Source: Allocoleopsis franciscana PCC 7113 (GTDB lineage Bacteria > Cyanobacteriota > Cyanobacteriia > Cyanobacteriales > Coleofasciculaceae). From it: a stretch of DNA of 64,000 bases. Both the position numbers and the translations under genes were made by a program. The notes under the pieces were generated by a model. That model was not told the origin of the DNA and made no database searches. It saw nothing but the letters and a program-made list of their open reading frames with translations. The stretch covers positions 2,001,623 through 2,065,622 of the forward strand of contig NC_019738.1 of assembly GCF_000317515.1 (NCBI RefSeq), written 5' to 3'. Shown in pieces: positions 1 to 46,013 of this stretch; position 1 is the stretch's first letter; each line of letters begins with the position of its first letter.

Positions 1-1208
1 TTCATTTCAAATAGGGCAAAAGTGCCTCCGATACAAACACGAGCACCGCCGCCAAAGGGAAAAAATTCGTAGGGAGAGAATTGTTTTTCTAGAAAGCGCT
101 CTGGCTTGAATTGTTTTGGCTCTGGGTATAAATCTTCACGCTGATGTGTGGAATAAATATTACCAGTGAGCGCTACACCCGGACTCAACTCATAACCCAT
201 CACCTCAACTGGGGACTCTACCAACCTGGGAAATGTAAATAACTGAGTCGGGTAAATTCGCAAAGCTTCGTTACAAACAGCATTAAGGTAGGGTAATGCA
301 ACAATGCTCATGGGCTCTGGATTTTTACCAAGGCTATCGAGTTCCTCAATCAGTCGATCGCGAACGACAGGTAAACGGTGAATCCAGTACAAAGACCAGG
401 CGATCGCAGTTGCTGAAGCATCTTGAGCTGCGAATATGGGTGATAATAGAAGGTCGCGCACCTCTTCATCGCTTAATGGTTCACCTGATTCATCATGAGC
501 AAATATGAGATCGGAGAGAATGTCAGTGTGTGAAGGTTTTGCTTGCTTGCGGCGTTCTTGGACTTCAGCGTATAGCAATTGGAAAAGTTCTTGCCGGAGG
601 TGAAGCAGGTATCCCTGTGGACTCCACCGACCTAAATCCCGTTGTCCAAAGGGGAGTCTTGTGGCAATCTCAAACAAGGGAGAATTCGCATGTTTGAGCA
701 CAGAAACGAATAGATGCTTGATTTTGTCATAGCGCTCTCCTTCAGGCAATCCCATCACAACCTCTATACCCACTCGCAGGGTGATATCTTCGATGGTAGG
801 GTAGGCAATAAAAGGTTTCCCGATCGCCTGTTGACTCATGATTTTTTCTGTGAGTTCGCAGATCCGTCGTCCGCAGGCTTGCATCCGCTCTCCGTGAAAA
901 GCCTGCATTAACAGCTTGCGCCGATGTTTGTGACGGAAGCCATCGAGTTGAAGGACTCCTCGCTCTCCTGTAATCAAGGCGAAACTCTGGTTCAATGCAC
1001 CGGATGCAGTGATTTCTTTGACGTTAGTGAAAATCTGCTTTATCCCTGAAGGATTGCTGACGAACAGTGTTGGTGTAGAATCAGGCATGATTATGGTGAA
1101 GATCTCACCATAGCGTTTGCACATGGCATCCAGCCAGCCAAAGGGGTCAGCTTGGAGTTTCGGATACAGTTGTCTAGCGGGAGCTTTCGGTCCTGGGGGT
1201 AGTTTCAT
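1..1208 (-). CDS. Cytochrome P450 monooxygenase, partial (C-terminus runs off the window start)
   Basis: Reverse-strand translation from the ATG at 1208-1206 gives MKLPPGPKAPARQLYPKLQADPFGWLDAM... and the heme-binding signature FPFGGGARVCIGG near position 40. The ATGA start overlaps the upstream NRPS stop. No stop codon before position 1. Confidence 0.8.
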   Translation of the reverse strand, partial: MKLPPGPKAPARQLYPKLQADPFGWLDAMCKRYGEIFTIIMPDSTPTLFVSNPSGIKQIFTNVKEITASGALNQSFALITGERGVLQLDGFRHKHRRKLLMQAFHGERMQACGRRICELTEKIMSQQAIGKPFIAYPTIEDITLRVGIEVVMGLPEGERYDKIKHLFVSVLKHANSPLFEIATRLPFGQRDLGRWSPQGYLLHLRQELFQLLYAEVQERRKQAKPSHTDILSDLIFAHDESGEPLSDEEVRDLLLSPIFAAQDASATAIAWSLYWIHRLPVVRDRLIEELDSLGKNPEPMSIVALPYLNAVCNEALRIYPTQLFTFPRLVESPVEVMGYELSPGVALTGNIYSTHQREDLYPEPKQFKPERFLEKQFSPYEFFPFGGGARVCIGGTFALFEM

Positions 1209-4200
1209 CAGTATTCTTTACTTGCGTTCTGTATACAAGAGTGAGCCTTATCAATAAGATTTCTCAACTGTCTAGCTAATTCCTGAATATGAGGTTCGAC
1301 GAACATCGAGAAATGATCTCCTGAAACTTCAATGACTTGAATAGGCTGGGTGGAACATTTACTCCAACCTAGAAAGGGGTCATCAGTATGGAATTCTGGA
1401 CTCTCAAAGTCATGAATAATTTGCTCCTTAGCTTTCAAGAGAGTCATCTGGTGAGGATAAACCTGCGGAACATAATCTCGCATGGCTTGGACATGAGCTT
1501 TGAAAAGTTTGTAATAGCGGAGAAAATCCTTAACCTCTTTGTCGCTAAAGATGAAGTTAGCTTTTTTATTGATTAAATGAAATTGCTCATCCACTGGCAA
1601 ATCTCGAAGTTCCTCAAAAGGAAGGGAAAAGTCAATATTATTGTTAGTTTTTAGCGATTCCGCCATGCGAAGGAAGAATTTTGCATCATCATCGTCTGCT
1701 GGTTTAACGGCTGTTTCTGATAATATGGCGTCGATGACAACTAGCAAACCTACTGTTTGACCCTGCCTTTGCAATTGTTGCGCCATTTCAAAAGCAAGTA
1801 CACCCCCGTAACAAAACCCTCCTAAAAGATAAGGGCCATTCGGTTGTACCTGACGAATTTCTTCGAGGTATCGAGCTGCTGTTTCCTCCACCGAAATTAT
1901 TTCAGGTTCCTCTTGGTCAGGGGTATGTTGCAATGCATAAAATGGGTAGTTCTCACCCAGTCTTCTGGACAAGTTAAAGTAAGCCTGAACACCTCCACCA
2001 GCGCCATGCATACAGAAAAAAGGAATTTTGGAACCAGAAGACTGAATGGCTACCAGATGAGAATTGGATGTCTCATGGACAGGCTGACTGACAAGGTGAG
2101 CTAGTTTTTCAATCGTTGGGTTTTCAAAAAGAGCAGACAGGGGAAGATTGTGCCCAAATCGATCGTATATTTGAGCCATTAAGCGTACAGCTAAAAACGA
2201 ATGACCACCCAAGTCAAAGAAGTTATCTGTTACTCCAATCGGGCTAGTATTCAGGAGATTTTCCCAAGTCTTCGCTAAAGTCAGTTCCGTAAAATTCCGG
2301 GGAGCAATGAAGGATTTCGTGGTGTTTGGTCGGATACCGTCGTCGGTGGGAAGCGCTTGCTTGTCTACTTTACCATTAGGTGTCAGTGGGAGTGCATCTA
2401 GTACTACGAAAGCGGACGGTAGCATGTAATTTGGCAGTTTCTGCTGTAAGTCAGCGCTTAACTGTGGCACTATGTCTGGCTGATCTGTCACTATATATGC
2501 AATCAAACGCCGATCGCCTTGAGCATCATCTCGGACAATGACGACAGATTCTTGCACATCTGGATGTTGTGAGACTACAGTGGCAATTTCTTCCAGTTCC
2601 ACTCGGAAGCCACGGATTTTGACTTGGTCATCATGGCGACCTAAATACTCTAGATTTCCATCGTTGAGATAACGCACTAAGTCGCCAGTTTTGTAAAGTT
2701 TGGTTCCTGGAAAAAAGGGGTTATCAATAAACCTTGCCTGAGTTAATTCAGGACGATGCAAATATCCCCTAGCTAATCCATCGCCACCAATATAGAGTTC
2801 ACCAACAACTCCTACAGGCGTTAGTTGCAAATGGCGATTCAATACATAGACCAGAGTATTGTCAATAGGGCGACCAATGGGAATGCTGGTTGCTTGTTCT
2901 GGCAATAAACTAATGTCGTAGTAAGTGACGTTGGCAGAAACTTCCGATGAGCCATAGAGGTTGATCAGTTTCGCAGATGGCATTAATTCTCGGAATGTTT
3001 GAGCTAAGCTAACAGACAGCGCTTCACCACTCGTTATCCAGAGTTTTAGATGTGACAAATTTCTAGTCAGATGACTGTAGGTATCCAAAAGTAAGCGCAG
3101 CAGTGAGGGCACAAGTACGATACGCGTAACGTTGTGATGTGCCAGAGTTTCGATGAACAATTGGAGGTCTTTGAGAATGGCATCGGGAATAATCACACTG
3201 GGAACGCCCTGAAGTAAGGGAGCAAAAATTTCCCATACTGAGTCTACAAAGCTAATCGCTGTCTTCTGGCAACAAACTTCCTCTTGTGTGAAGGGATAGG
3301 TTTTCCACAGCCAGTGCAAGCCATTGACTGTACCTTGGTGAGTCCCAAGAACGCCTTTAGGAGTTCCGGTGGAACCAGAAGTATAGATAATATAAGCGAG
3401 ATTATCAGCTTTTGACGGACTGATCGGGTTTTCCTGACTTTCTTGGGCAATTTCGTCTTTGTGGATGTCCAGGCATATAGTTTTGGCTTTTGATGCAGGT
3501 AGCTTTTCTAATATCTCTTGTTGGGTGATTAACACCAATGCCTGGGAATCAGAGAGCATGAAGCCAAGGCGATCGACTGGATAACTTGGGTCAAGGGGAA
3601 TGTATGCACCGCCAGCTTTGAGGACAGCTAAAATTCCCACAACCATTTCTACTGAACGTTCCAGACAAATCGCAACCAAAGAAACTTTGGTTACACCTTG
3701 TTTTTGTAAATAATGGGCAAGCTGATTAATTCTCTGATTAAGTTGACGATAAGTCAGTTGCTCTGTTTGGCTAATTAATGCTAATGCATCAGGAGAATGC
3801 TTGACTTGCTGCTCAAATAGTTGATGGAGAGATGCATCTTGGGGATAATCTGCACGAGTCTGATTCCACTCAAATAATAGTTGCTCTCGCTCTTTAGCCG
3901 TGAGGGGTGACAATTCTGAGATGCGCTGTTCTTGATTCGCAACAATGTTTTCCAATAAAGCTTGGAAATTGCTGATGAATCGGGTTATTGTTACCTCTTC
4001 AAAAATGTCTGTATTGTACTCCAAAAACCCTGTTAAACCCTGTTGAGATTCAGACATCGACAGGAAAATGTCCAGCTGAGCTGTACCGCTATCGAACTCC
4101 AAAGTACGCAAGGTTAAACCAGAAATTTCCTGCGCGGGCATTGGGGTGTTTTGCAGGACAAACATCACTTCATAAAGCGGATTCCGGCTTAAGTCTCGGT

Positions 4201-5320
4201 CGGGTTGCAATTCTTCTACAAGCATCTCAAAAGGCAAATCCTGATGTGCATAAGCATCGAGAGTTACCTCACGCACTCGATGTAGCAGTTCGCGGAAGCT
4301 AGGGTCGCCACTGAGGTTATTACGCAACACCAAAGTATTCACAAACAAACCCAGCATCCCTTCTAATTCAGCTCGATTCCGGTTGGCAATTGGGGAACCA
4401 ATTAGGATGTCTTCTTGGTCTGTGTAGTGGTACAGCAAGGTATTGAATGCTGCCAGCAGAGTCATAAATAAAGTGGCATCTTCTCGCTGACTGAATTGAT
4501 TTAGTGCATCTGTGAGAGTTTTTGAGAATGTAAAGTATTGCTTAGCACCAGTAAAAGTGGTCACAGTAGGTCGCGGACGATCTGCGGGTAACTGTAGTAC
4601 AGGTAGTTCGCCGCTGAGTTGTTGCTTCCAATAATTAAGTTGAGTTGATAGGACTTCACCTTGGAAGCGATCGCGCTGCCAAACCGCAAAATCTGCATAC
4701 TGAATCGGGAGTTCAGCTAAGGGAGAAGGCTGATTTGTGGAGAAAGCTGCATACAGTGTTGCAAACTCCCGCAGAAACACACCCATAGACCATCCATCCG
4801 TAATGATATGGTGCATGGTCAAAAGGAAGACGTGTTCTTCGTCACTCAATCGCAGTAAAGTTGCTCTGACTAAAGGTTCTTTAGCCAAATTGAAATGTTT
4901 CTTGGCTTCTTCAGCGGCAAGTTGTTTAATCTCTGGTTCCCAGTTTTTTCCGGACAAATGCTCGAAATTGATGATGGGTAAGTTCCAGGTTAATTCCGGT
5001 ACAATCTCCTGTACTGGCTCTCCATTTACAAGTGCAAAAGTTGTACGCAAAACTTCATGACGCTTAAAGATTTCATTAAGACTTTGCTGGAATGCAGTAA
5101 TATTAAGCAGTCCTTTTAAATGACAGGCGATAGGAATATTGTAGAAAGGACTCCCGTGGTAAAGTTGGTCAATAAACCACAGCCTTTGTTGCGAGAAAGA
5201 TAAAGGAGCCTTGTTATAGAATTGACGCTTTGGAATAGTATCAGCTTTAAATTTTCCTCCTTTCCACTTTTCCAAAAGGGCTTTCTTGGCGGGTGATAAA
5301 TTGGGGTATTGCTTATCCAT
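1208..5320 (-). CDS. NRPS module C-A-PCP-TE. A domain core reads FVDSVWE; the TE has a Cys nucleophile.
   Basis: C domain MHHIITDGWS. A domain LAYIIYTSGSTGTPKG, YKTGDLVRYL, LPLTPNGKVDKQAL. PCP FFDLGGHSFLAV. TE elbow GGFCYGG. N-terminal LSPAKKALLEKW head. Confidence 0.9.
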   Translation of the reverse strand: MDKQYPNLSPAKKALLEKWKGGKFKADTIPKRQFYNKAPLSFSQQRLWFIDQLYHGSPFYNIPIACHLKGLLNITAFQQSLNEIFKRHEVLRTTFALVNGEPVQEIVPELTWNLPIINFEHLSGKNWEPEIKQLAAEEAKKHFNLAKEPLVRATLLRLSDEEHVFLLTMHHIITDGWSMGVFLREFATLYAAFSTNQPSPLAELPIQYADFAVWQRDRFQGEVLSTQLNYWKQQLSGELPVLQLPADRPRPTVTTFTGAKQYFTFSKTLTDALNQFSQREDATLFMTLLAAFNTLLYHYTDQEDILIGSPIANRNRAELEGMLGLFVNTLVLRNNLSGDPSFRELLHRVREVTLDAYAHQDLPFEMLVEELQPDRDLSRNPLYEVMFVLQNTPMPAQEISGLTLRTLEFDSGTAQLDIFLSMSESQQGLTGFLEYNTDIFEEVTITRFISNFQALLENIVANQEQRISELSPLTAKEREQLLFEWNQTRADYPQDASLHQLFEQQVKHSPDALALISQTEQLTYRQLNQRINQLAHYLQKQGVTKVSLVAICLERSVEMVVGILAVLKAGGAYIPLDPSYPVDRLGFMLSDSQALVLITQQEILEKLPASKAKTICLDIHKDEIAQESQENPISPSKADNLAYIIYTSGSTGTPKGVLGTHQGTVNGLHWLWKTYPFTQEEVCCQKTAISFVDSVWEIFAPLLQGVPSVIIPDAILKDLQLFIETLAHHNVTRIVLVPSLLRLLLDTYSHLTRNLSHLKLWITSGEALSVSLAQTFRELMPSAKLINLYGSSEVSANVTYYDISLLPEQATSIPIGRPIDNTLVYVLNRHLQLTPVGVVGELYIGGDGLARGYLHRPELTQARFIDNPFFPGTKLYKTGDLVRYLNDGNLEYLGRHDDQVKIRGFRVELEEIATVVSQHPDVQESVVIVRDDAQGDRRLIAYIVTDQPDIVPQLSADLQQKLPNYMLPSAFVVLDALPLTPNGKVDKQALPTDDGIRPNTTKSFIAPRNFTELTLAKTWENLLNTSPIGVTDNFFDLGGHSFLAVRLMAQIYDRFGHNLPLSALFENPTIEKLAHLVSQPVHETSNSHLVAIQSSGSKIPFFCMHGAGGGVQAYFNLSRRLGENYPFYALQHTPDQEEPEIISVEETAARYLEEIRQVQPNGPYLLGGFCYGGVLAFEMAQQLQRQGQTVGLLVVIDAILSETAVKPADDDDAKFFLRMAESLKTNNNIDFSLPFEELRDLPVDEQFHLINKKANFIFSDKEVKDFLRYYKLFKAHVQAMRDYVPQVYPHQMTLLKAKEQIIHDFESPEFHTDDPFLGWSKCSTQPIQVIEVSGDHFSMFVEPHIQELARQLRNLIDKAHSCIQNASKEY

Positions 5321-5431: not shown

Positions 5432-8400
5432 CTAGTTACCTAAAAGAACTGCAACTTGTTCTTCCGATAATTCTTCAATTTTCTCTAACATAAGTTGCTC
5501 AATCATTTCTGCTTGTTTTACAGGTATCATTGCTTGCAGTAAAAGGTCTCGCAGTGGTAGCTCTACTGGAAACTTTGTTCGCAATCGAGAAACTAGTTGA
5601 GTTGCAATCAGAGAGTCTCCTCCCAATTCATAGAAGTTATCGTAAATACCAACTTGTGCAATTCCAAGAACTTCTTGCCAGATTTCGGCAATTTGTTTTT
5701 CTAACTCGTTAGTTGGAGCAACATAGGAATTACTAAGGTTAGGTCTGGAATAGCGTGAGGATAAGTCTGCTTGACTGGAATGTTTTGAATCTGGTAGAGA
5801 GTCAAGGTTAAATGTGTGATGGCGCTGCGTGCCGCGCCAAAGGCGATCGCACCGGGTTTTGAGATCGACTGTGGAAACAACAACTTGAGTTCCCTCTCCT
5901 AAAGAGAGTATCCGTTTAAATACTTCTACGCTTTCTATTTCAGTGATGGCTAACTCCACCCCAGATGCCTGTTCAAATACTGTTTGTTCTTGGGTTGCAT
6001 TCAGTTGCAATTTATCCCAATTTATAGAAAGCCAGGGGGGACATTTAGTTTGGTTTTGTCTTTGTCTTTGAGTAAAGGTATCTGTTAATTGATTAACCCC
6101 TGAGTATAAAGCTAACCCAAACCCTCCTAAAATGGAAGACAAATAAGAAAATATAATACAAAAACTTAGATTTTTATTTTGTATTATTTGTTCTAATACA
6201 GTAATTTTATGGCGTTGATAGTCAAGTTGTTTTTCTAACGTTGTACTATCAATTTCTGATATCGAACTAAATATATTTTCGCGTGTTATTCCAGTTGAAT
6301 AGATAACCCCATGAATTTGACCAACCTTTTCAGGTGCAAGGCTCTGGTGCATTTGATCGTAGTTAGTTGCATCTGCACGCACCACCAAAACTTCTGCACC
6401 TAATTCATCTAACACTAGCAATTTTCTGATTTTACGACTCACCTCATCTTCTTGAGCGTGAGTTTCTAACCATTGCAAGTATTCATCCCTGCCAGGGAAA
6501 GCGGAATCTTCGATAAATATGAGTTTGGCTTGTAGGGTTTTTGCTAGATATTCCGCAATCACAACTCCAAGACTTTCCAGTCCGCCTGGAAACAGGTATA
6601 CACCTTGTTGTCTCAAACGAGTTTTTTCTTCAATTACTGACTCTAAGCGCATTGGCTCAAATGTTTGTACCCAGCGGTAGCGATCGCGATATGCAACAAC
6701 CAAGTCTGACGACAAAGCTGTGAACTCACCTAAGATTTGGTCAATAATAGGACTGTCACAATCTCCTCGTCCTCTCTCTGCGTCTTGGCGATTCGTTAAA
6801 GCAACATCAATACTCCGACAGGTGATATTAGGATACTCTTGCGGAATTACCTTACATAAACCTAAGACTGTTGCTTTCTCTGGAACCAGAGTTTCATTGC
6901 CACTGACTTCTTGGGTCTGGTTCGATACAACCCATATTTGCAGGTACTCATTAATGTTGAGCTTACCAAGAGACTGCGTTAAAAATAGCAAACTGTTAAA
7001 TTCTAAATACTTACCCAGTTGACGATTGTCAAAAGTATTCAGACTCCATAAGTGAGCAATGTTATGGGGAATTTTATCTTGTGCAATCAGCTCTTGGAAC
7101 AACGCCTCGTAGTCATCTCTGTTTTGGGGATTAATAGCATAGACTCCCTCACTCAATTGTGTAAATTTCTCTCCCACTTTCACCACAAGCACATTTTTGC
7201 CATTCTGTTCCAGTTTGTTAACTAACTGGGAACCTACCCCCCACTCATCAACAAACAACAACCATTGTTCTTGTGCAGATTCTATTGGAGAAGGGAAGGA
7301 TGCATGAGGTAGCAAGGAACGTTTCCATGAAGGGATATAGAACCAGTCAGCAATGTCTTGTTTTTTGTCTACTGTTACTGGCTTGCTACTTAAAGAAGGT
7401 GATGACGATTTTGCCTCAATCCAGTATCTTTGTCGCTCAAAGGGGTAGGTAGGCAAAGGCAGACGATGACGCCGCTCGTGGGTATAAAATCCTGACCAAT
7501 CTATCTCTACTCCAGCTAGCCACAACCGACCTAGTGTCTGCAACAAGAAGCTCACATCCGATTGTTGTTCTTTGACATGGCGTAAGGAAGTCAGCACCTG
7601 TTGTTTGGCTTGTGGCTTCAAATGCTGTGTTGTGAGTGTGCTTAATGTCCGCCCCGGACCTACCTCTAAGAAAACACCATCAAACTGCTCTAATAGTTGA
7701 GATATCCCATCAGAAAACTTCACAGATTGCCGTAGATGTTGACCCCAGTAGCTGGGATTTGTCGCTTGTTCATCTTTTATCCAAGTACCAGTCACATCGG
7801 AAATGAAGCGAAGGCGTGGCGGATTGAGTTTGACTTTTTTGACAGCCTGCACAAAGGGTTCCACTATTGGTTCCATCATCTGGGAGTGGAAAGCATGAGA
7901 TGTATGCAATAGCCGACATTCAATCCCTTGGGAGGATAATTGATTTTGGAGTGAGGCTATAGCCTCCCTAGAACCGGAAACTACGCATGAAGATGAAGTA
8001 TTGATTGCTGCTATTTGGATAGACGGGCCACCGTGCGTCTGTTGCTCCAACAGAGATTGCACCTGTTTTTCGGGAAGTGGAATTGCCAGCATACTCCCGA
8101 CGGGCAACTGTTGCATCAGTTTTCCCCTGGTTGCCACAATTGCTAAAACATCTTCCAAGGAGAACACACCAGCAATTGTTGCCGCGACATATTCCCCGAT
8201 GCTGTGACCAATCATCGCCTCTGGACGCACTCCCCATTCCATCCACAACTGGGCGAGGGCGTATTCAATTACAAACAGTGCTGGTTGGGTGATGGCTGTT
8301 TGTTGTAGTTGTTGAGATGCAACTTCAACCAGTTGTGCTTTGGGGAAGAGTATCTGGCGGATATCCAGATTGAGCAGGGGTTGGAGAGTCTTGGCGCAAG

Positions 8401-11848: not shown

Positions 11849-11981
11849 ATTTAAATCCTCTGAATAAATTATTTTTCACTTTTTGTGTAGCACAAAAAAC
11901 ATCTATTAATTCCCTAATTCAACCGAATTCCAGGTAGTTTTATTAGAGAATATACCCGTGGAATGGAGGTATTTGTTTGAA

Positions 11982-24508: not shown

Positions 24509-24511
24509 TTG

Positions 24512-38274: not shown

Positions 38275-38683
38275 AGTTAAAGGACTCGGTATTGATATCG
38301 CGCCCATCCCCCGGATTGCTAGATTAATTGAGCGGTACGATCGCGAAACGTTAAATTTGTTGTTTACTCCGGGCGAACTCGACCGTTGCCAATCCTCCAG
38401 TCATCCCCACCGTTCTTTCGCCGTGTGCTTTGCCACCAAGGAAGCTGTGGGAAAAGCTTTAGGAACTGGATTAGCAGGCATTGGCTGGAATGAAATTGAA
38501 GCCAACCTTACCCAAGACAGGTTAACCGTTCACCAGCATGGGGACGCCAGCATTCAGGCGAAACGATGGGGTATCCACACATGGTTAGCGACATGGTGCC
38601 ATTGGGATGAACACGTACTAGTTCACGTTCTCGCCTTATCAAACATAAGCGTCAAAGAAAAATTTTATGAAAAGTGTTTCTGA
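38264..38683 (+). CDS. AcpS-type (holo-ACP synthase-like) 4'-phosphopantetheinyl transferase
   Basis: 139 aa. GLGIDIAPIPRI and FATKEAVGKALGTG match AcpS motifs. Coupled to the carrier protein upstream and the ligase downstream. Confidence 0.65.
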   Translation: MSLEVKGLGIDIAPIPRIARLIERYDRETLNLLFTPGELDRCQSSSHPHRSFAVCFATKEAVGKALGTGLAGIGWNEIEANLTQDRLTVHQHGDASIQAKRWGIHTWLATWCHWDEHVLVHVLALSNISVKEKFYEKCF

Positions 38684-40229
38684 ACAGTTGCCGAGTGCCT
38701 TCAATGTGGCAGCTTATTTCTTGAACAGCAATATAGAACGGGGAAATAGCCAAAAAGTCGCCTGTTTTTATCAGGACGATACCTATACTTACGATCAACT
38801 CAACCGCTTTGTCCAACGCACGGCGCGATCGCTCCTCACTCTCGATTTAGAGCGGGAAAATAGGATTGCCATTCTTTTGCCTGATACTCCCGAGTTAGTC
38901 TTTGCCTTTTGGGGAGCAATTTGGATGGGTGCCGTACCTGTTCCCATTAACACCGCCTGTAGCATTGATGAAATCCAGTATATTCTGCAAGACTCGCGAG
39001 CCAAAATCTTACTGACGACTCAGGAATGGCAAAAGAAACTCACTCCCATTCCGTCTCAGTTTTTGCAGCACATTCTACTCAAAGATGGAGACAACCCATT
39101 TTTATCCCGACTCACCCAACAGCCTGACGAACCCTTCCCCTGTGCCGAAACCTCTCGCGACGAACCCGCCTTCTGGCTTTACACCTCCGGCAGTACAGGC
39201 AAACCCAAAGGGGTGGTTCACTTGCATCAAAGCATGGTGGTTTGTGCTGAACGCTATGCTAAAGCCACACTTGGCTTGCAACCCGATGACATCACCTATT
39301 CGGTTGCCAAGGTGCCTTTCGCCTACGGTTTAGGAAATACGCTTTATATGCCAATGGCAGTCGGTGCAGCCACCGTATTGTCAGATGCCAGCAACGCATT
39401 TGATATTATCTCCGACATTCAGCGCTATCAACCGACCGTCTTTTTTGGCATCCCCAGTATTTATGCCAACCTTCTCGCCGTACAGGATATCGCACCTTTA
39501 GATGTCTCCTCCCTGCGCTTATGCATCTCTGCCGCCGAACAGCTTCCTGAGAGTATCTGGCAAAAGTGGCGAGAGACTTACAACCGGGAAATTTGTGAAG
39601 GAATTGGCACAACTGAGTTTTTGCACATTTTTCTTGCCAACCGCTTAGGTGAGTGCAAACCTGGCACCTCCGGTCGCCCCGTTCCGGGTTACGATGTCCG
39701 AGTCGTTGATGAAAATGGACTTCCCTGTCCTCCAGGCGAGATTGGCGACCTTTTGGTAAGTGGAGAAAGCCTGATGTTGGGGTACTGGAACCGACTCCGA
39801 GAAACGCGGCAAGCACTCTATGGCAACACCATGCGAACGGGGGATAAGTATCTGTGTGATGCTGACGGCTATTTTAAGTTTATGGGTCGTAAGGACGATT
39901 TGTTTAAAGTAAACGGTCAGTGGGTTTCTCCTTTGGAAATTGAGGATATCTTGCACCAGCATCCCCAAGTGCTAGAAGTGGCGGTGGTTCCTGAATCTAA
40001 TGAGGGCGAACAACTCACTCGAGTCGTTGCTTATGTCAGCCTCAAACCCGGACAAGAACCGTCCCCTGAATTGGAAACTAGTATTTGTAAATTTGCCAAA
40101 CAGCAACTTCCTCATTTTAAGGCTCCAAAAACCGTGCGCTTTGTGGAACAGTTACCGCGTACTGCGACGGGGAAAATTCACCGGAAATTGATAGGAAAAA
40201 ATCAAGTCCTAGCTGTAGGCACTCACTGA
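38667..40229 (+). CDS. Aryl-CoA ligase of the benzoate-CoA ligase family (candidate salicylate/aryl acid activating enzyme)
   Basis: NVAAYFLNSN, FWLYTSGSTGKPKGVVHLH, VPFAYGLGNTLYMP, MRTGDKY, RKDDLFKVNGQWVSP, LPRTATGKIHRKL. These are typical of the BadA/BclA-type family. Confidence 0.8.
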   Translation: MKSVSEQLPSAFNVAAYFLNSNIERGNSQKVACFYQDDTYTYDQLNRFVQRTARSLLTLDLERENRIAILLPDTPELVFAFWGAIWMGAVPVPINTACSIDEIQYILQDSRAKILLTTQEWQKKLTPIPSQFLQHILLKDGDNPFLSRLTQQPDEPFPCAETSRDEPAFWLYTSGSTGKPKGVVHLHQSMVVCAERYAKATLGLQPDDITYSVAKVPFAYGLGNTLYMPMAVGAATVLSDASNAFDIISDIQRYQPTVFFGIPSIYANLLAVQDIAPLDVSSLRLCISAAEQLPESIWQKWRETYNREICEGIGTTEFLHIFLANRLGECKPGTSGRPVPGYDVRVVDENGLPCPPGEIGDLLVSGESLMLGYWNRLRETRQALYGNTMRTGDKYLCDADGYFKFMGRKDDLFKVNGQWVSPLEIEDILHQHPQVLEVAVVPESNEGEQLTRVVAYVSLKPGQEPSPELETSICKFAKQQLPHFKAPKTVRFVEQLPRTATGKIHRKLIGKNQVLAVGTH

Positions 40230-40253: not shown

Positions 40254-41576
40254 ATGGTTACAGAATTAAAAACCGCTCTATCGTATCAAGAAACTTTTGT
40301 ATCGGGCAGAAGGAATGCAGTAGCGGTTTTACAGAATTTTTTGAAAGCGGGTATTTTTTCCAATTATGTGATGTATGAAAAAGACAACGAAGTTCGCATT
40401 GCGGGCAATGAGCTAGCCAAGGTGTCCGTCAGCAAAACTACAGTCTGTCTTGAGGGTATGGGGAAATCTTCCTCTCAACCTGTCAGCGATCCGTTTAAAC
40501 AAGTCGGTGATTTACTGAGGTCTTTATCTATTAAAAATTGGACCGCTTATGGTTATGTAGCCTTTGACATGGCTGGCTTCTATTCGTCCTACTCTAAAGC
40601 AATGGAGCAGCCACTTCTTTATTTATTAGTTCCTGAAACCGAACTGCGTTTTACGTCAGAAGGCGTTCATGTTAAAAGCACCAGTTCATTAGAGCAAATT
40701 CGAGAACTACTATCTATTGATAGCAAGCTCCCCGATTATGTACCCATCTCTCTCGCTGAAGATTTCGCGGACTGCGAAAATTACTCCCACCGTATTGAGA
40801 GGTTAATTGAGGCAATTCAAAATGATGAATTGCATAAAGCTATTATCTCTCGCTCCAAGAAACTTATCGGCAATTTGGATGTATTGGGAACTTATGCCGT
40901 TGGAGCCAAAGCGAATAATTCAGCGCGTTCCTATTGTCTAAATATAGGAGACGTGCGTGCGGTTGGCTTTAGTCCTGAAATTTTGATGCAAGTTAATAAA
41001 GACGGGTTTGTCGTGACGAATCCTTTAGCAGCAACTCGTCCTCGCGGTCAATCTAGTGAAGAGGATGCACGCTTCAATGATGAACTTTTCACCGATGCTA
41101 AGGAGGTGAAAGAACACGCACTTTCTATCTGGTTGGCACAAAGCGAACTGAGTTCATTTTGCTTTCCAGAAACGGTTCGGGTTTTTAATTTTATGGAGGT
41201 GAAAAAATATCGCTGTGTGCAGCACCTTTCTTCGAGAGCTGGCGGTCAGCTAAAAGATGGAAATACGTTGTGGGATGCGTTGAAGGTTTTGTTTCCAGGT
41301 ATTACTGTTTCTGGAATTGATAAACAAAAAGCTTTAGATTGGATCGATCGCTTGGAGGACGAACCGAGAGGAATTTATGCGGGTGGTATTGGTTGGGTTG
41401 ATAGTAATGGGGAATCGGATTTAGCGATCGCAATTCGTTCTGTCTACCAGTACGGCAATGAAATCTACCTCAATGCTGGAGCGGGTATTGTTGCTGAATC
41501 AGTGCCTCAAAATGAGTATATCGAGTCGGTTAACAAAATGAATACGATGCTGACGAATTTAGTTTTGCAATCTTGA
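40254..41576 (+). CDS. Chorismate-utilising enzyme (salicylate synthase / isochorismate synthase family)
   Basis: 440 aa. C-terminal chorismate-binding signature PRGIYAGGIGWVDSNGESDLAIAIRS. Size fits MbtI/Irp9-like salicylate synthases. Confidence 0.7.
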   Translation: MVTELKTALSYQETFVSGRRNAVAVLQNFLKAGIFSNYVMYEKDNEVRIAGNELAKVSVSKTTVCLEGMGKSSSQPVSDPFKQVGDLLRSLSIKNWTAYGYVAFDMAGFYSSYSKAMEQPLLYLLVPETELRFTSEGVHVKSTSSLEQIRELLSIDSKLPDYVPISLAEDFADCENYSHRIERLIEAIQNDELHKAIISRSKKLIGNLDVLGTYAVGAKANNSARSYCLNIGDVRAVGFSPEILMQVNKDGFVVTNPLAATRPRGQSSEEDARFNDELFTDAKEVKEHALSIWLAQSELSSFCFPETVRVFNFMEVKKYRCVQHLSSRAGGQLKDGNTLWDALKVLFPGITVSGIDKQKALDWIDRLEDEPRGIYAGGIGWVDSNGESDLAIAIRSVYQYGNEIYLNAGAGIVAESVPQNEYIESVNKMNTMLTNLVLQS

Positions 41577-41594
41577 TAACGACGAGATAGCTGC

Positions 41595-42026
41595 ATGAAT
41601 ATTATCGGTCATGGGATTGACATTGTGGACGTGAGATGCATCCAAGAACTTGTCGAACAAACGGGGGAGTGTTTTGAACGTCAATGCCTCACGGCTGCGG
41701 AACTCAATGCTTCGGGGTTCCGTACTCACCGCTTTGAGTATCTTGCTAGCCGTCTCGCTGCCAAAAAAGCGGTTCAAAAAGCGCTCGGTGGAGATTGCCA
41801 ACAGCCTATCTCGTGGCATGAGATTGAGATCCAAAAGCTACCGACGGGTGAACCGTTTGTCGTGCTGTATGCCACTACCCTTGAAATTGCCGCGAAACTT
41901 GGCATTACCAAGTGGCTGCTGAGTATCAGCCATACCCCATCTTATGCGACAGCCAGTGCGATCGCCCTTCAGGCGCTGGCAAAGCCAATTGCCCTTCTAT
42001 TCTCCAACAGTGGTGCACCTTACTAA
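41595..42026 (+). CDS. AcpS-type 4'-phosphopantetheinyl transferase (second copy)
   Basis: 143 aa. MNIIGHGIDIVDV, LASRLAAKKAVQKALGG and SISHTPSYATASAIA match AcpS motifs. Confidence 0.75.
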   Translation: MNIIGHGIDIVDVRCIQELVEQTGECFERQCLTAAELNASGFRTHRFEYLASRLAAKKAVQKALGGDCQQPISWHEIEIQKLPTGEPFVVLYATTLEIAAKLGITKWLLSISHTPSYATASAIALQALAKPIALLFSNSGAPY

Positions 42027-42168
42027 CTGTCAACTGTACAGTCATCTACCGAAATAAATAAAGTTGACATGGCAAACGAACTGTTTTATTGTTACTTGAG
42101 TTAATGATACTATTTCTCAATAATTTACTTGAGTTGCTGAGAGTAACTCAATTCCTGGGGGTGAGGAC
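42027..42168. promoter_or_regulatory. Promoter region of the TonB-dependent receptor gene with a Fur-box-like element and a direct repeat
   Basis: ttgaca at 42064-42069. tgatactatttctca at 42104-42118 matches the Fur 7-1-7 consensus TGATAATnATTATCA at 11 of 14 positions. ttacttgagtt is repeated at 42092-42102 and 42125-42135. Confidence 0.35.
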
Positions 42169-44757
42169 GTGGACACTCGATTGAAACTACAACAATTATT
42201 TCCTAGTTTTTTGTTCGCTAGCACGGTTTCTGTACTCGTTGCAGCTCCGGCTTTTGCTCAAGTTATACAAGTAACAGGCGTGCGTGTCTCTGCCACATCG
42301 AGCGGAGTTAATGTGATTTTAGAGACCAATTCAGACACTATTCCCCAAGTGTCTACGGCAAGCTTGGATAAGACGTTACTGACTGATATTTTCAATACTC
42401 AACTGCGTCTACCAGATGGTCAAGCGTTTCGTCAAGACAACCCGGTGGAAGGGATTTCGTCTGTCACGGTGACTCAGCAATCTCCAAACACCATTCGAGT
42501 TGCGGTAACGGGTACAACAGAGGTGCCGACGGTTCAACTTAGTCCCAGTCCATCAGGATTCGTCCTGAGCCTGAGTACTCCATCGGCTACGGCTCAAACT
42601 CCATCAACTGAAACTCCTACAGCACAAGAGCCTCAAACTCAGCCGCCTACCGCACCTGAAGTCACCACCCCTTCAGAGGATAAACCCGAAGCCCCGACGG
42701 CTGCACCCGAGCCAGAAGAGGAGATTGAAATCGTGGTGACGGGGGAACAAGATGAAGATAGATACTTTGCCCCCAATGCCAGCACCGCGACGCGCACCGA
42801 TACTCCACTGCGCGACATTCCTCAGTCAATTCAGGTGATTCCGCAAGAGGTAATTAAAGATCAACAGGCAACCGATTTAAGAGATGTCCTAAGTAACTTG
42901 AGTGGCGTAACACCCAGTGGCTCAGCCGGTAATGCGGTTACTAATTTTACGATTCGAGGATTTCAACAGGCACCCATCTTACGCGACGGCTTTAGACAAA
43001 ATCCTTTGAATCGGGGAGTACCACAACTTGCCGACCTCGAGCGGGTTGAAGTTCTCAGAGGCCCTGCATCAATTTTATACGGTGAGGTGCAGCCAGGAGG
43101 TGTGATTAACCTAGTGAGTAAACAGCCCCTCACTGAGCCATTTTATGAAGCGGAACTGCAAATTGGCAACCGCGAGCTGTTTCGACCCCGGATTGACATT
43201 TCAGGTCCATTGACAGCAAACCGCAGCTTGCTCTATCGCTTGAATTTGGCATACGAAAGCAGTGAACCGTTTCAAGACTTTGAGCAAGGATTTGAGCAAT
43301 TTCTGATTGCACCCGTAGTCACTTGGAAGCCGAGCGATCGCACAGATGTCACGTTTCGACTACAGTATTCTGATCGAGAAGCCCCCGCAGATAATGGTTT
43401 AGTTGCGTTTGGCAACCGAGTTGTTGATGTTCCTTTCGATACCATTACCACTTCTCCAAACGACCCTGGGATTCGGGAAAACAACTTCAGCATCGGGTAC
43501 GACTTAGAGCATCGCTTTAGCGACAACTGGCGACTTCGCAACGCCTTCCAGTTTTCGGATTTCTCAAGCGATATCGGTCTCAGGAATCCTTTCTTCATTA
43601 ATGAAACTACAGGAATTTTGGGTCGTGTTCCTGTTCGACAACAAACTGATACGCAAAATTATAATTTGCAAACCAATATTGTCGGGGAATTTGCCACAGG
43701 CTCGATCAAGCATACACTTTTGTTTGGAGTCGATCTTAATCGAATTGAAAATGCCCAACTCCTATGGGGAGGTTCCTTCGGCAATCCGTTGCCACTCAAT
43801 ATCTTCGCTCCTGATTATGGCGCAGATCCTAATATTGATTTTAAGACCTTACCCTTCTTATCTGGCTTTGGCCCTTCAAAAGTTCAAACCGATCGATTGG
43901 GAGTTTATATACAAGATCAAGTCAAGTTTCTAGACAACCTAATCCTAGTGGCAGGGCTTCGCTATGATACAGTAAACAGCACCAGCGCTCCTTTCCTTGA
44001 TGTAGACAATACTGGACCTGAAACGACTCAAAACGATGACGCACTAACCCCCCGAATTGGAATTGTCTATCAACCCATCCCAGCGATTTCGCTCTACGGC
44101 AGCTACTCCCGGTCATTTACACCCAGCAGCGAAACTACAGCCAACGGCGATCCGCTTGAACCAGAACGAGGTGAGGGATTTGAAGTTGGTGTCAAAGCCG
44201 AATTGCTCGAAGGTAGACTGTTGACCACCCTGGCATATTTTGACATCACCAAACAAAATGTTGCCACAGCCGATCCCAATAATTTGTTTGGGGTTGTGGC
44301 AGCGGGCGAACAGCGAAGTCGCGGGGTTGAGCTGGACGTGACTGGAGAAATCTTGCCGGGATGGAATATTATTGCCTCCTATGCCTACACCGATGCCGAA
44401 GTTACAGCAGACAACGAAATTCCTGTGGGCAATCGGTTGTTTAACGTCCCTGAACATAGTGCCAGTCTGTGGACGACCTATGAAATCCAACAGGGGAATT
44501 TGCAAGGCTTGGGTTTTGGTGTTGGATTTAACTTTGTTGGGGAACGTCAGGGCGATTTAGCCAATAGTTTTCAGGTAGACAGCTATTTTCTGACCAATGC
44601 GGCTATTTTTTATCGTCGCAACAACTGGCGAATTGGCCTCAACGTCAAGAACCTGTTCAATATCGACTACATTCAAGCGACTGATAATCTTAGGCGGGCT
44701 GGAATTGAACCAGGCGATCCGTTGACGATCATTGGCTCAGTTTCAGTGGAATTTTGA
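42169..44757 (+). CDS. TonB-dependent outer-membrane siderophore receptor
   Basis: Signal peptide. N-terminal extension, then Pro/Thr/Glu-rich linker. Plug domain (DTPLRDIPQSIQVIPQEV). Long beta-barrel ending in C-terminal aromatic SVSVEF. Confidence 0.85.
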   Translation: MDTRLKLQQLFPSFLFASTVSVLVAAPAFAQVIQVTGVRVSATSSGVNVILETNSDTIPQVSTASLDKTLLTDIFNTQLRLPDGQAFRQDNPVEGISSVTVTQQSPNTIRVAVTGTTEVPTVQLSPSPSGFVLSLSTPSATAQTPSTETPTAQEPQTQPPTAPEVTTPSEDKPEAPTAAPEPEEEIEIVVTGEQDEDRYFAPNASTATRTDTPLRDIPQSIQVIPQEVIKDQQATDLRDVLSNLSGVTPSGSAGNAVTNFTIRGFQQAPILRDGFRQNPLNRGVPQLADLERVEVLRGPASILYGEVQPGGVINLVSKQPLTEPFYEAELQIGNRELFRPRIDISGPLTANRSLLYRLNLAYESSEPFQDFEQGFEQFLIAPVVTWKPSDRTDVTFRLQYSDREAPADNGLVAFGNRVVDVPFDTITTSPNDPGIRENNFSIGYDLEHRFSDNWRLRNAFQFSDFSSDIGLRNPFFINETTGILGRVPVRQQTDTQNYNLQTNIVGEFATGSIKHTLLFGVDLNRIENAQLLWGGSFGNPLPLNIFAPDYGADPNIDFKTLPFLSGFGPSKVQTDRLGVYIQDQVKFLDNLILVAGLRYDTVNSTSAPFLDVDNTGPETTQNDDALTPRIGIVYQPIPAISLYGSYSRSFTPSSETTANGDPLEPERGEGFEVGVKAELLEGRLLTTLAYFDITKQNVATADPNNLFGVVAAGEQRSRGVELDVTGEILPGWNIIASYAYTDAEVTADNEIPVGNRLFNVPEHSASLWTTYEIQQGNLQGLGFGVGFNFVGERQGDLANSFQVDSYFLTNAAIFYRRNNWRIGLNVKNLFNIDYIQATDNLRRAGIEPGDPLTIIGSVSVEF

Positions 44758-44900
44758 CTTTACTTGGTATCCTCCTTTCATCAGGACTTACGCAAAACCT
44801 CTATTTGTAGAGTGTGTTAGCGTAGCGTAACGCACCATCTCCTCTATAAGTGGTGTAGGTGCGTAAGTCCTGTTCATAAAAGGAAGGGAGTCGAAATTTC

Positions 44901-46013
44901 TTGGCAAGGGGGGATTGGGAAAGCCGGATTTTCACTCATGAAGTAGAGATGAGAACAAAGAATCAATTTATTAAGCTTCTGGTATTAGCAGTACTCACAG
45001 CGTTTGTAGTGGCGGCTTGTAATGGAACAGCCAATAAGCTCACTGCTGATGACGACAATCCCCTGATTAGATCATCTGCAACGTCAGCAAACTGCCGCAC
45101 CATTGAGCATCAAATGGGAGAAACCGAAGTTTGTGGTCAGCCCCAGAGGATTGTGGTGCTTGGTCCTTCTGTCCTAGAATTGCTCCTAGCTCTAGACGTT
45201 CAACCGACTGGGTTCGCTGACCAGGTAACGTGGCATAGAGGAAATTACGATAACCCCGGTCAACAAATTCCTTATCTGGGAAGCCGAGTAACCAGTCAGT
45301 TGAAGAATGTAGGCTCGGTTTCTGAACCGTCTATCGAAGCCATTCTCAGTGTTCAGCCCGACTTGATTTTAGGCACTCAGTACAATGCCAATCAATATAA
45401 GGTATTTTCTAAGATTGCTCCAACCTTGCTGCTCAGTCGGAATGATAATGATATAGAAAAAAGTTTGCGGGCGATTGCCAAGGCTGTAGGAAAGTCTGAC
45501 CAAGCCGAACAATTGCTAACGAAAACACAACAGCAAATTGCTTCGGCTCGTGAAACCTTTGCACGCACTGTTGCTACTCACCGCAAAGTATTGCTGCTCA
45601 GTGCAGTCAAATGGGAGGAGCTTTATTTAGGTGACTCTAACTTTGGTCTTTGCAGTTCCTTGCTTGAAGCTTTGGGATTTCAACTAGTTACACCACCTGG
45701 TTTAAATTTGTCTAAACCAGATACTCCAGTTCCCATTTCTCTCGAAATTCTACCTCAACTGAATGCCGCAGATTCAGTGATTATGTTTGGAGGCAATTTC
45801 AGCGAACTTAATAACACGAATAATTTTGAAGCCCACCAACTGTCACATCTGAAGCAAGCGTGGGCAAACAATGCGATCGCCCAATCCCTCAATGCCAGCA
45901 AAACTGGACGAGTGTATTTCATTGCTGGTTATCTATGCCGAGGTTTTCCCGGTCCGATTGGTACTGAGCTTTATCTGGAAGAACTTGAAAAGCAATTGCT
46001 CTCGCCAAGTTGA
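44901..46013 (+). CDS. Periplasmic iron-siderophore ABC transporter substrate-binding lipoprotein (FecB/FhuD-like). Likely true start at 44949.
   Basis: MRTKNQFIKLLVLAVLTAFVVAAC lipobox. Class III SBP-like sequence follows. Adjacent to the TonB-dependent receptor. Confidence 0.7.
   Translation: MARGDWESRIFTHEVEMRTKNQFIKLLVLAVLTAFVVAACNGTANKLTADDDNPLIRSSATSANCRTIEHQMGETEVCGQPQRIVVLGPSVLELLLALDVQPTGFADQVTWHRGNYDNPGQQIPYLGSRVTSQLKNVGSVSEPSIEAILSVQPDLILGTQYNANQYKVFSKIAPTLLLSRNDNDIEKSLRAIAKAVGKSDQAEQLLTKTQQQIASARETFARTVATHRKVLLLSAVKWEELYLGDSNFGLCSSLLEALGFQLVTPPGLNLSKPDTPVPISLEILPQLNAADSVIMFGGNFSELNNTNNFEAHQLSHLKQAWANNAIAQSLNASKTGRVYFIAGYLCRGFPGPIGTELYLEELEKQLLSPS

Follow-up and report, generated by a model that had tools for sequence, protein, structure and literature searches.

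The siderophores yersiniabactin and pyochelin start from salicylate, which an EntE/YbtE/PchD-type salicyl-AMP ligase loads on an aryl carrier domain. Here we describe a hybrid nonribosomal peptide synthetase (NRPS) and polyketide synthase (PKS) cluster of the cyanobacterium Allocoleopsis franciscana PCC 7113, presumably the strain formerly named Microcoleus sp. PCC 7113, which works like this class at its first module and is loaded in a different way. The cluster lies in a stretch of 64,000 nucleotides (contig NC_019738.1, positions 2,001,623 to 2,065,622 of the forward strand), called the window below, and all coordinates are positions in this window. Judging from its genes, the cluster probably makes and re-imports a salicylate-capped bis-thiazoline peptide-polyketide that acts as a metallophore.

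With yersiniabactin and pyochelin the locus shares salicylate synthase chemistry, a Cy-A(Cys) module for a hydroxyphenyl-thiazoline, a dedicated TonB receptor and, in the case of yersiniabactin, an inserted PKS. It differs from them in its back half, in the lack of a thiazoline reductase or methyltransferase in the window, and in its loader: the sole stand-alone ligase of the cluster belongs to the benzoate-CoA ligase family and not to the EntE/YbtE/PchD type. The first-pass annotation had proposed the salicyl-thiazoline logic of yersiniabactin and pyochelin, and of the elements of that class the synthase, Cy-A(Cys) and receptor are present, while the EntE-type loader is not.

For the front end, the fat cluster of Leptolyngbya sp. 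offers a match gene for gene, in the same order and with near-identical lengths, as compared by gene sizes and annotations; its product, fatuamide A, has a proven salicyl-thiazoline (PMC11877528). The corresponding proteins are FatB (ACP), FatC (AcpS-type phosphopantetheinyl transferase), FatD (benzoate-CoA ligase family), FatE (salicylate synthase, 1323 nt, identical in length to the window gene), FatF (second phosphopantetheinyl transferase), FatG (KASIII, ~507 aa) and FatH (Cy-A(Cys)-PCP), and genes for type II thioesterase, TonB receptor and binding protein are found in fat as well (PMC11877528). Farther downstream the two clusters part. Fatuamide biosynthesis employs Phe and Gly modules and three PKS modules that reduce fully, and its chain is released by a C domain or the type II thioesterase, while its gene table is without an FkbH cassette, second thiazoline, D-Ser, PanP/β-alanine modules, Cys-TE and P450 (PMC11877528).

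The leptochelin neighbourhood likewise lists a benzoate-CoA ligase and a KASIII. Identity with leptochelin or lusichelin was rejected, as the papers on them mention neither FkbH nor a decarboxylase and the module strings differ. Identity with anachelin, whose first heterocycle is a Ser-derived oxazoline and not made from Cys, was also rejected: in our locus the A codes specify Cys instead of Ser, other genes lie between the two PKS modules, and chromophore genes are missing. In the 2014 model of the anachelin pathway of Anabaena cylindrica PCC 7122, a KSIII-ACP ('KACP'), SalS and a salicyl-CoA/PCP ligase precede a Cy-A-T, and two KR-type PKS modules, an E-domain NRPS making D-Ser, and efflux, binding-protein and receptor genes are present as in our locus (PMC4247773). 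That model differs in having consecutive PKS modules and a tyrosine-derived quinolinium chromophore made by dedicated enzymes, and no FkbH cassette, PanP or Cys-TE is described in it (PMC4247773).

In the searchable open-access literature we found no product matching the domain string, and nothing relevant on siderophores of PCC 7113 or Allocoleopsis, on FkbH/hydroxymalonyl metallophores of cyanobacteria or on cyanobacterial pyridone siderophores. The loader of the cluster is already known; for the part that follows the first module we found no counterpart among described products, in line with the first-pass annotation, which had been unable to name a product, and leptochelin, lusichelin, fatuamide and anachelin all diverge at that point.

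Gene content of the cluster

The gene map was built from a list of open reading frames (ORFs) and Pfam scans with E-values between 1e-7 and 1e-250, so that chance matches are of no concern. Thirteen consecutive minus-strand genes face seven plus-strand genes (window 1-46013), almost gene for gene as first annotated. The position given then, 1-46013 or about 46 kb, was right for the genes and short for the cluster, since the left boundary of the window is an artefact that cuts through it. On the identical Logan contig L083 the cluster extends about 4 kb further, through the rest of the P450 gene, a MatE exporter gene and a gene for a type II thioesterase of 259 aa, beyond which the genes are unrelated; its total size is ~50 kb, with all ORFs intact. 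The genes to its right belong to a separate unit for metal efflux. The features, from left to right, are as follows.

1-1208 (cut by the window, 402 of 460 codons), minus: cytochrome P450 (PF00067; full 460 aa on L083)
1208-5320, minus: terminal NRPS, C-A-T-TE; A code VDWVISLANK; TE triad Cys-Asp-His (GGFCYGG, VVIDA, GDH)
5432-10102, minus: PKS module 2, KS-AT(GHSIGE/HAFHS)-KR*-ACP, where KR* is without cofactor motifs
10178-11848, minus: PanP, pyridoxal phosphate (PLP)-dependent aspartate 1-decarboxylase, group II (TIGR03799 equivalog)
11982-15416, minus: NRPS module C(DCL-like, HHHLLLDGWS)-A-T; A code VDWVVSLADK
15413-23383, minus: two-module NRPS of 2656 aa, Cy(ExxxxD)-A(Cys)-T-C-A(Ser)-T(GGDSI)-E; A codes DLYNMSLIWK and DVWHISLIDK
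23438-24508, minus: FkbH (Pfam, TIGR01686)
24512-25696, minus: acyl-CoA dehydrogenase homologue (Pfam)
25768-26022, minus: small ACP of the FkbH cassette (Pfam)
26063-26917, minus: 3-hydroxyacyl-CoA dehydrogenase homologue (Pfam)
27006-31688, minus: PKS module 1, KS-AT(GYSIGE/HAFHS)-KR-ACP (Pfam and motifs)
31893-35411, minus: first NRPS module, TubC_N-Cy(DLLIFD)-A(Cys, DLYNLSLIWK)-T (PF18563, E = 1.1e-18)
35621-37180, minus: KSIII::ACP fusion, 519 aa, with Cys155-Asn289-Asn319, ACP Ser453 and the tail EEREKLSL
37181-38010, no strand: divergent promoter region, ~830 bp, with Fur-box-like sites and promoter-like hexamers on both strands
38011-38274, plus: free-standing carrier protein, 87 aa (PF00550); the ORF could start at 37924
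38264-38683, plus: AcpS-type phosphopantetheinyl transferase 1 (PF01648, holo-ACP synthase models)
38667-40229, plus: benzoate-CoA-type aryl ligase (TIGR02262)
40254-41576, plus: salicylate synthase (TIGR03494)
41595-42026, plus: AcpS-type phosphopantetheinyl transferase 2 (Pfam and NCBIfam)
42100-42118, no strand: Fur-box-like site (14/19), 50 bp upstream of the receptor gene
42169-44757, plus: TonB-dependent siderophore receptor with N-terminal AMIN domain, AMIN-Plug-barrel (Pfam, TIGR01783)
44901-46013, plus: periplasmic siderophore-binding protein, FhuD/FecB type (PF01497)

On the minus strand, the genes at 15413-23383 and 11982-15416 overlap, as do those of the terminal NRPS and the P450, and the remaining gaps measure 3-209 bp. 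For the carrier protein, 38011 is the more likely start, this being the 87-aa call on both identical contigs, L001 and L002.

Cysteine modules and proposed pathway

The ten-residue codes of the A domains, whose extraction had been recommended with the first annotation, were obtained by motif scan and by alignment to GrsA-PheA; the GrsA sequence used reproduced its known code, DAWTIAAICK, at the canonical positions. Two Cys codes, one Ser code and two VDWV-type codes resulted. These five A domains, distributed over four NRPS proteins, make five NRPS modules, where about seven had been estimated. The two Cy-A-PCP modules with the core FDLSVYD were, on the other hand, correctly recognised: this motif occurs in exactly two A domains, each behind a Cy-type domain, and their codes, DLYNLSLIWK and DLYNMSLIWK, are what we take to be the cysteine code. 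Behind the A domain with the Ser code, DVWHISLIDK, come a GGDSI carrier and an E domain. Both Cy domains have the catalytic residues, namely the Thr of FTS and the Asp and Gln of TPQVxLDxQ. According to structural work on HMWP2-Cy2, the Asp and Thr form the cyclodehydration dyad with the Gln as a helper, and DxxxxD is treated as structural (PMC9547227). The second Cy domain reads QTPQVYLDLQ and has ExxxxD in place of DxxxxD.

From these genes we propose the following pathway. Salicylate would be made from chorismate by the salicylate synthase and activated by the benzoate-CoA-type ligase, probably as salicyl-CoA. The Cys of KSIII would take the aryl group and hand it to the fused ACP, and the EEREKLSL tail of this protein would dock on the TubC-type domain of the first NRPS; the two AcpS-type phosphopantetheinyl transferases would prime the two discrete carriers. 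The hydroxyphenyl-thiazoline would be formed by the first Cy-A(Cys)-T. PKS1 would then add a hydroxymalonyl-ACP unit and reduce the ketone, giving a vicinal 2,3-diol between the thiazolines, of which the second would come from the second Cy-A(Cys)-T. Ser would be next and would be epimerised to D-Ser, and β-alanine made by PanP would be added through the DCL-type C domain. PKS2 would add malonate and leave the β-ketone in place, before a second β-alanine-type unit is added by the terminal C-A-T. Lastly, the TE with its Cys-Asp-His triad would release the chain, in the favoured version by a Dieckmann reaction that closes a 3-acyl-piperidine-2,4-dione ring; a 3-acyl-4-hydroxy-2-pyridone like that of kirromycin may then arise through desaturation by the coupled P450. 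The product would be exported by the MATE pump, and its metal complex would be returned by the AMIN-TonB receptor and the binding protein. The [M+H]+ values to be expected are 620.148 for the pyridone, 622.164 for the dihydro form, 640.174 for the linear 3-oxo acid and 642.190 for the linear product with an active KR2.

The order of the units is taken to follow that of the genes. The C domain following the E domain differs strongly in sequence from its terminal counterpart and has the form HHHLLLDGWS, which we associate with DCL domains; such a form in this position agrees with a colinear order.

Terminal block and release of the chain

In kirromycin biosynthesis, β-alanine from KirD is loaded by the terminal NRPS KirB, KirHI cyclises and releases the N-(β-ketoacyl)-β-alanyl thioester, and KirOI adds the ring double bond (PMC5818483, PMC4979870). 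Dieckmann cyclases rely on a triad of Cys, Asp and His, and the catalysts known to form tetramates include TE domains (PMC5818483, PMC4979870). The kirromycin decarboxylase, terminal β-alanine-type NRPS module, β-ketoacyl chain, Cys-Asp-His release and P450 all have counterparts in the window, predicted ones in the case of the β-alanine-type module and the β-ketoacyl chain.

The PLP-dependent decarboxylase noticed in the first pass is specifically PanP, an enzyme of β-alanine supply, and passes the PanP equivalog TIGR03799 with 618.1 bits against a cutoff of 606.1. Both VDWVVSLADK and VDWVISLANK A domains are without Asp235 and have an Asp at 236, and we take VDWV(V/I)SLA(D/N)K to be of the β-alanine type. 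The internal NRPS at 11982-15416 and the terminal NRPS are 44% identical overall, with A domains that by eye are roughly two thirds identical and C domains that have diverged. The internal VDWV type also occurs in clusters of Brasilonema and Gloeocapsopsis dulcis.

Two KS-AT-KR-ACP modules are present, as annotated earlier, but the KR of the second has lost three cofactor motifs: TGGLGGxG is changed to PGGLESxx (PGGLESLG in the window), GRS to EDS and HAAG to YSTG. The same loss is seen in all five orthologues (window plus four). We predict this KR to be non-reducing, and with the cofactor motifs gone the chain at the last module would therefore be a β-ketoacyl thioester.

The E domain and the Cys-TE of the first-pass annotation are both there, the TE with the motif GGFCYGG. 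The closest solved TE is that of AB3403 from Acinetobacter baumannii (PDB 4zxh/4zxi, E = 2e-31), a protein of the same C-A-T-TE architecture whose nucleophile is also a Cys (GGWCFGG); AB3403 works in a small fatty-acyl pathway without a PKS partner, PanP or P450. The start of the P450 gene overlaps the stop codon of the terminal NRPS gene, so that the two are translationally coupled, and the closest solved relative of the P450 is CYP120A1 (PDB 2ve3).

The terminal block is widespread. Among the matches listed, 120 orthologues of the terminal NRPS share 75-100% identity with it, at least 106 of them with the TE Cys, and their genera include Nostoc, Scytonema, Fischerella, Tolypothrix, Calothrix, Brasilonema, Gloeocapsopsis and others. 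The P450, NRPS, PKS2 and PanP of the window are 67-85% identical to those of Nostocales/Gloeocapsopsis relatives. A P450 gene directly follows the orthologous NRPS gene in the relatives L084-L088 and L093. The five contexts examined contain, in this order, one or more PKS genes, the terminal NRPS, one or two P450s and, farther downstream, a MatE gene; PanP lies upstream of the terminal NRPS in the contexts wherever the view extended that far. Often present in the relatives' clusters are a methyltransferase, a short-chain dehydrogenase/reductase and a 'sucrase ferredoxin', in many of them also an Asp/Asn hydroxylase-like gene; the 'sucrase ferredoxin'-like class has been reported in cyanobacterial siderophore transport clusters (bioRxiv 10.64898/2026.07.30.741596).

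On the G. dulcis plasmid NZ_CP119970.1 (36.7-103.6 kb), a related cluster has the FkbH cassette, has panP at the same position, and encloses genes for a TonB receptor and a binding protein midway; its annotation lists no salicylate genes. Such loci belong to an orphan NRPS-PKS family of Nostocales and Chroococcales with an FkbH cassette, PanP, a cofactor-less last KR, a Cys-TE NRPS, a P450 and a MATE gene, and these orphan clusters share the terminal block without having the salicylate loader. In a metagenomic relative (JGI 3300072952, Ga0613659_000210), PKS2 and the terminal NRPS are each 96% identical to those of the window, against 59-70% for the front end; this relative has a thiazole-forming Cy-A-Ox-T as its second module, and two P450s. 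The disparity between the two ends makes the cluster a mosaic and indicates recent recombination between the cluster halves.

Since the four kirromycin functions all have counterparts in the cluster, we propose the same ring outcome. A Dieckmann/pyridone-type release is in our view the most likely single route, although we would put it at somewhat below an even chance, with plain hydrolysis nearly as likely; our confidence is kept low because every link is inferential. The resemblance to kirromycin is functional and not a demonstrated homology, so that the cluster stands outside that family and yet could work alike. The window decarboxylase is of the PLP-dependent PanP type, while KirD is of the pyruvoyl PanD type; an in-line α/β-hydrolase TE takes the place of the stand-alone KirHI-type cyclase, of which the cluster, having no unassigned stand-alone gene, shows no trace; and the predicted product, from a cyanobacterial host, is a metallophore rather than an elfamycin. 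Going one step further, PanP, the PKS with the cofactor-less KR, the β-alanine-type Cys-TE NRPS and the P450 may constitute a self-contained device for a metal-binding head group, with the TE as the Dieckmann catalyst, an idea that we advance tentatively.

The main competitor is the same assembly line with ordinary release, in which the Cys-TE would hydrolyse the chain or macrolactonise it onto the Ser or a polyketide hydroxyl. The product would then be linear or macrocyclic with a β-alanine terminus and no pyridone-type ring, and the P450 would hydroxylate elsewhere. We regard this as a serious possibility that falls rather short of an even chance. Pfam places the TE in the ordinary type I class, the solved structures nearest to it are those of TEs that hydrolyse or esterify, AB3403 and Pks13 among them, and dedicated Dieckmann cyclases belong to a different protein family; AB3403, the nearest solved Cys-TE, has no known Dieckmann activity. 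KR2 retains its catalytic tetrad of Lys, Ser, Tyr and Asn, and residual or altered activity is possible. The window P450 is CYP120-like and not KirOI-like. The β-alanine assignment is tentative: a literature text search for the A-code strings VDWV(V/I)SLA(D/N)K found nothing, and with a one-position difference between the internal and terminal codes the last unit may not be β-alanine. All of these points detract from a ring-forming release. Against simple hydrolysis stands the joint recurrence of β-alanine supply, cofactor-less KR, Cys-Asp-His triad and coupled P450 in all relatives examined: these four features match the kirromycin functions one for one, and hydrolysis leaves their travelling together unexplained. 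A β-lactone or β-lactam, formed by release as known from obafluorin and sulfazecin, was rejected as the work of the Cys-TE, because the match to ObiF is marginal (E = 0.003) and no terminal β-hydroxy-α-amino acid is predicted.

Uptake and regulation

The cluster has its own TonB receptor, as first annotated. It passes the TonB-dependent siderophore receptor model TIGR01783 (459.1 bits, cutoff 223.5), and a siderophore-type binding protein is encoded next to it, which matches the NCBIfam Fe-siderophore binding-protein models below their cutoffs. The class of TonB-dependent transporters with AMIN-Plug-barrel architecture is reported to be exclusive to cyanobacteria, and for cyanochelin import the receptor and binding protein alone sufficed, with the permeases acting in trans (bioRxiv 10.64898/2026.07.30.741596).

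Fur-box-like sites lie at 37305-37323 (13/19) and 37703-37721 (14/19) in the divergent promoter region, the former ~20 bp from the minus-strand promoter-like hexamers. Four matches of 14/19 exist in the whole 64 kb, and two of these are in promoter regions of the cluster (37703 and 42100). When the promoter regions were shuffled as a control, 1 of 1000 shuffles reached two hits. Fur-type regulation of both promoters is thus suggested by the sites, and we treat it as suggestive only.

An alternative is that the product is no metallophore but a cytotoxin or signal, next to receptor and binding-protein genes that are accidental neighbours or serve another siderophore. Leptochelins, lusichelins and fatuamide were indeed first noticed as cytotoxic fractions, lusichelin production does not respond to iron limitation, and genes for a permease and an ATPase are absent from the cluster. 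We nevertheless consider this unlikely. The receptor and binding-protein genes are on the same strand as the starter genes and follow them directly, with short gaps; a Fur-box-like site precedes the receptor gene; AMIN-TonB receptors are also found inside the G. dulcis cluster and beside the loader in Tolypothrix; and the receptor and binding protein of cyanochelin are sufficient for import. Moreover, the predicted product bears donors suited to a metallophore: the phenolate-thiazoline, the diol and the β-dicarbonyl, to which the second thiazoline and the Ser hydroxyl would be added.

Several observations nonetheless tell against a metallophore assembled as proposed above. No ABC permease or ATPase genes lie within the cluster, an objection that is removed by the cyanochelin case, because import there needs just the receptor and binding protein locally. 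The Fur-like sites match just 13-14 of the 19 consensus positions, and the salicylate synthase assignment exceeds its cutoff by just 2.6 bits. Colinearity is assumed from gene order, and its support consists of only two junctions, from the E domain to the DCL domain and from the KSIII tail to the TubC dock. Finally, a search of the open-access literature for reports on chemistry, expression or metal binding in PCC 7113 found none.

Salicylate loader

A chorismate-derived aryl acid had been postulated in the first pass, and the enzyme at 40254-41576 indeed belongs by its sequence to the salicylate synthase family: it passes the NCBIfam equivalog TIGR03494 (327.8 bits, cutoff 325.15), and its closest solved structures are MbtI and Irp9, so that it would be expected to make salicylate. 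The ligase passes the benzoate-CoA ligase family TIGR02262 (495.7 bits, cutoff 375.25); its closest solved relatives are the benzoate-CoA ligase 2v7b (1e-110) and the anthranilate-CoA ligase 4wv3, and PqsA matches too.

Between this ligase and the Cy domain, the KSIII::ACP fusion sits as an intermediary. An alignment of KSIII with FabH shows the acyl-accepting Cys and an Asn retained, with the catalytic His replaced by Asn; FabH, PqsD and PqsC are solved relatives of the domain. Across 120 homologues of 63-100% identity, the Cys is present in 120, the Asn in place of His in 118, the second Asn in 120 and the ACP Ser in 119, and the C-terminal tail EEREKLSL is conserved among them. FabH mutants without the catalytic His retain self-acylation and lose malonyl-ACP decarboxylation. 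A KSIII without His that is fused to an ACP points to acyl transfer and not to condensation, and we infer that KSIII::ACP is an aryl transacylase and donor carrier. PqsA and PqsD of the Pseudomonas quinolone pathway, where an aryl-CoA ligase is likewise followed by a KSIII-fold enzyme and which are solved relatives of both loader proteins, would show by precedent that a KSIII cysteine can be acylated by an aryl-CoA; in PqsD the active-site Cys accepts the aryl group, which is condensed with malonyl units.

A TubC_N docking domain opens the protein encoded directly downstream of KSIII::ACP. The same arrangement, with KSIII::ACP directly upstream of a TubC_N-docked Cy-A-T, is found in Chroococcidiopsis, Tolypothrix and the metagenomic relative (L090, L091, L092), and the loci of Chroococcidiopsis and Tolypothrix have the same loader gene set. 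The CoA-type ligase, KSIII::ACP, carrier and two phosphopantetheinyl transferases are the usual cyanobacterial salicylate loader, and by gene content the PCC 7113 cluster is a member of the group that has it. Of the elements first listed as foreign to the textbook pathways, the FkbH cassette, PanP, Cys-TE and P450 are confirmed, while KSIII::ACP is not peculiar to this cluster. In Chroococcidiopsis sp. (CP083762.1), a flavin-dependent halogenase gene (11585-13234) lies between KSIII::ACP and Cy-A-T in an otherwise identical loader, which suggests that carrier-bound salicylate is halogenated there, as in the halogenated leptochelins.

Another chorismate-derived acid, such as an aminobenzoate or an isochorismate-derived acid, could in principle be the starter, given that the synthase score is barely above its cutoff, that anthranilate and aminodeoxychorismate synthase models match as well, and that the ligase family includes anthranilate-CoA ligases. 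We hold this to be very improbable: the best family and the best solved relatives of the enzyme are salicylate synthases, Pfam shows neither a glutamine amidotransferase partner nor EntA/EntB-type genes in the cluster, and the fatuamide cluster, with the same gene types in the same order, yields a salicyl-thiazoline proven by nuclear magnetic resonance.

Extender unit of the first PKS module

FkbH (TIGR01686, 297.9 bits, cutoff 146.65), the small ACP and both dehydrogenase homologues form a cassette between PKS1 and the next NRPS; Pfam finds no O-methyltransferase gene or domain in it. We take FkbH, an ACP and two dehydrogenases to be the zwittermicin-type set for hydroxymalonyl-ACP. Zwittermicin ZmaD/E/G/N and FK520 FkbH-K are hydroxymalonyl- and methoxymalonyl-ACP extender pathways, respectively, and the window shares with these the four-gene set of FkbH, ACP and two dehydrogenase homologues; it differs in having no FkbG-type O-methyltransferase and in the AT of the partner PKS, which has GYSxGE instead of GHSxGE. 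The cassette is 72-89% identical in loci of Symploca, Phormidium and Microcoleus.

The AT of PKS1 reads GYSIGE (near window 28900-29000) and that of PKS2 reads GHSIGE. In a survey of 80 retrieved loci around FkbH relatives, GYSxGE was found in the cassette-adjacent AT of about 50, from cyanobacteria, Acidobacteriota, Chloroflexota-type metagenome-assembled genomes and myxobacteria, and second ATs farther from the cassette have GHS. The metagenomic relative fits this pattern: its PKS at the PKS1 position has a GHS AT, and the next NRPS follows directly, with no cassette. The HAFHS motif of the PKS1 AT looks malonyl-like. Because the GYSxGE AT tracks FkbH cassettes, hydroxymalonyl-ACP is provisionally assigned to PKS1, whose AT we infer to accept the FkbH-derived unit, the GYSxGE link being an association only. 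GYSxGE may serve to recognise, by sequence, ATs for FkbH-derived extender units; we know of no description of such an AT signature. The KR of PKS1 carries all its motifs and looks reductive, whereas the stereochemistry motifs of the KR domains were too ambiguous for an assignment. As there is no methyltransferase, the unit should keep a free hydroxyl.

A tetronate-like logic, in which FkbH, the small ACP and the FabH-like KSIII would join glyceryl-ACP to a β-ketothioester, was rejected as scarcely credible: all three defining protein types are present, but the cassette holds both dehydrogenases that oxidise glyceryl-ACP to hydroxymalonyl-ACP, KSIII is without the His used for condensation and is encoded at the operon end opposite any β-keto intermediate, KSIII::ACP accompanies salicylate genes where FkbH is not listed (fatuamide table) or not seen in the stretch inspected (Chroococcidiopsis, Tolypothrix, metagenomic relative), and the FkbH cassette of G. 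dulcis has no KSIII annotated nearby.

Flanking genes in the window

Directly beside the cluster, and kept there on the identical contigs L001 and L002, lies a CoaR/CoaT-like pair. Its first member is a MerR::CbiC fusion (46450-47562, minus) ending in ...PDCHCYLTRT (Cys-His-Cys), and the second, divergent from it, is a P1B-type ATPase (47645-49570) that has SPC in transmembrane segment TM6 but lacks a metal-binding domain at its N-terminus. The 82 bp between the two genes contain TTGACA and an ACCTT..AAGGT inverted repeat. We take MerR::CbiC and an SPC P1B ATPase to be hallmarks of the CoaR/CoaT cobalt-efflux pair of Synechocystis, and it is possible that the pair protects against metallophore-borne cobalt.

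A full-length orange carotenoid protein gene (Carot_N and NTF2), in keeping with a cyanobacterial origin of the window, follows at 49953-50915. The stretch 51700-57500 is low in GC (~0.30) and holds a 921-aa ORF (51773-54538, minus) and two small ORFs; the 921-aa ORF matches no Pfam or PADLOC model, and no ORF of this low-GC island matches PADLOC. A tyrosine integrase gene (56111-57286) adjoins tRNA-Leu (57418-57499). No direct repeats flanking the island were found, but with its integrase the stretch looks like an integrated mobile element. The rest of the window (57583-63991, minus) encodes two multi-PAS/GAF sensor histidine kinases, of 1378 aa and at least 594 aa, which are unrelated to the cluster; with its four GAF domains, the 1378-aa kinase resembles a phytochrome or cyanobacteriochrome.

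Significance

Few cyanobacterial metallophores are known, namely schizokinen, synechobactins, anachelin, cyanochelins, leptochelins, lusichelins and fatuamide, and the new ones have each brought unexpected metal preferences, with copper, cobalt and zinc besides iron. The PCC 7113 cluster is a concrete target in a culturable collection strain with a complete genome, and its product has predicted masses. Its aryl-CoA ligase/KSIII::ACP loader, for which we found no reconstitution in the literature searched, appears to be the standard cyanobacterial start of salicylate-capped compounds.

If the proposed release is correct, the PCC 7113 compound would join a salicyl-thiazoline at one end to a pyridone-type group at the other, and a large unrecognised class of cyanobacterial metallophores would end in an acyl-piperidinedione/hydroxypyridone group, with the Cys-TE domains as the in-line equivalent of the Dieckmann cyclases of actinomycetes. 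As the terminal block is common to more than 100 cyanobacterial genomes, the product of PCC 7113 would annotate many orphan clusters.

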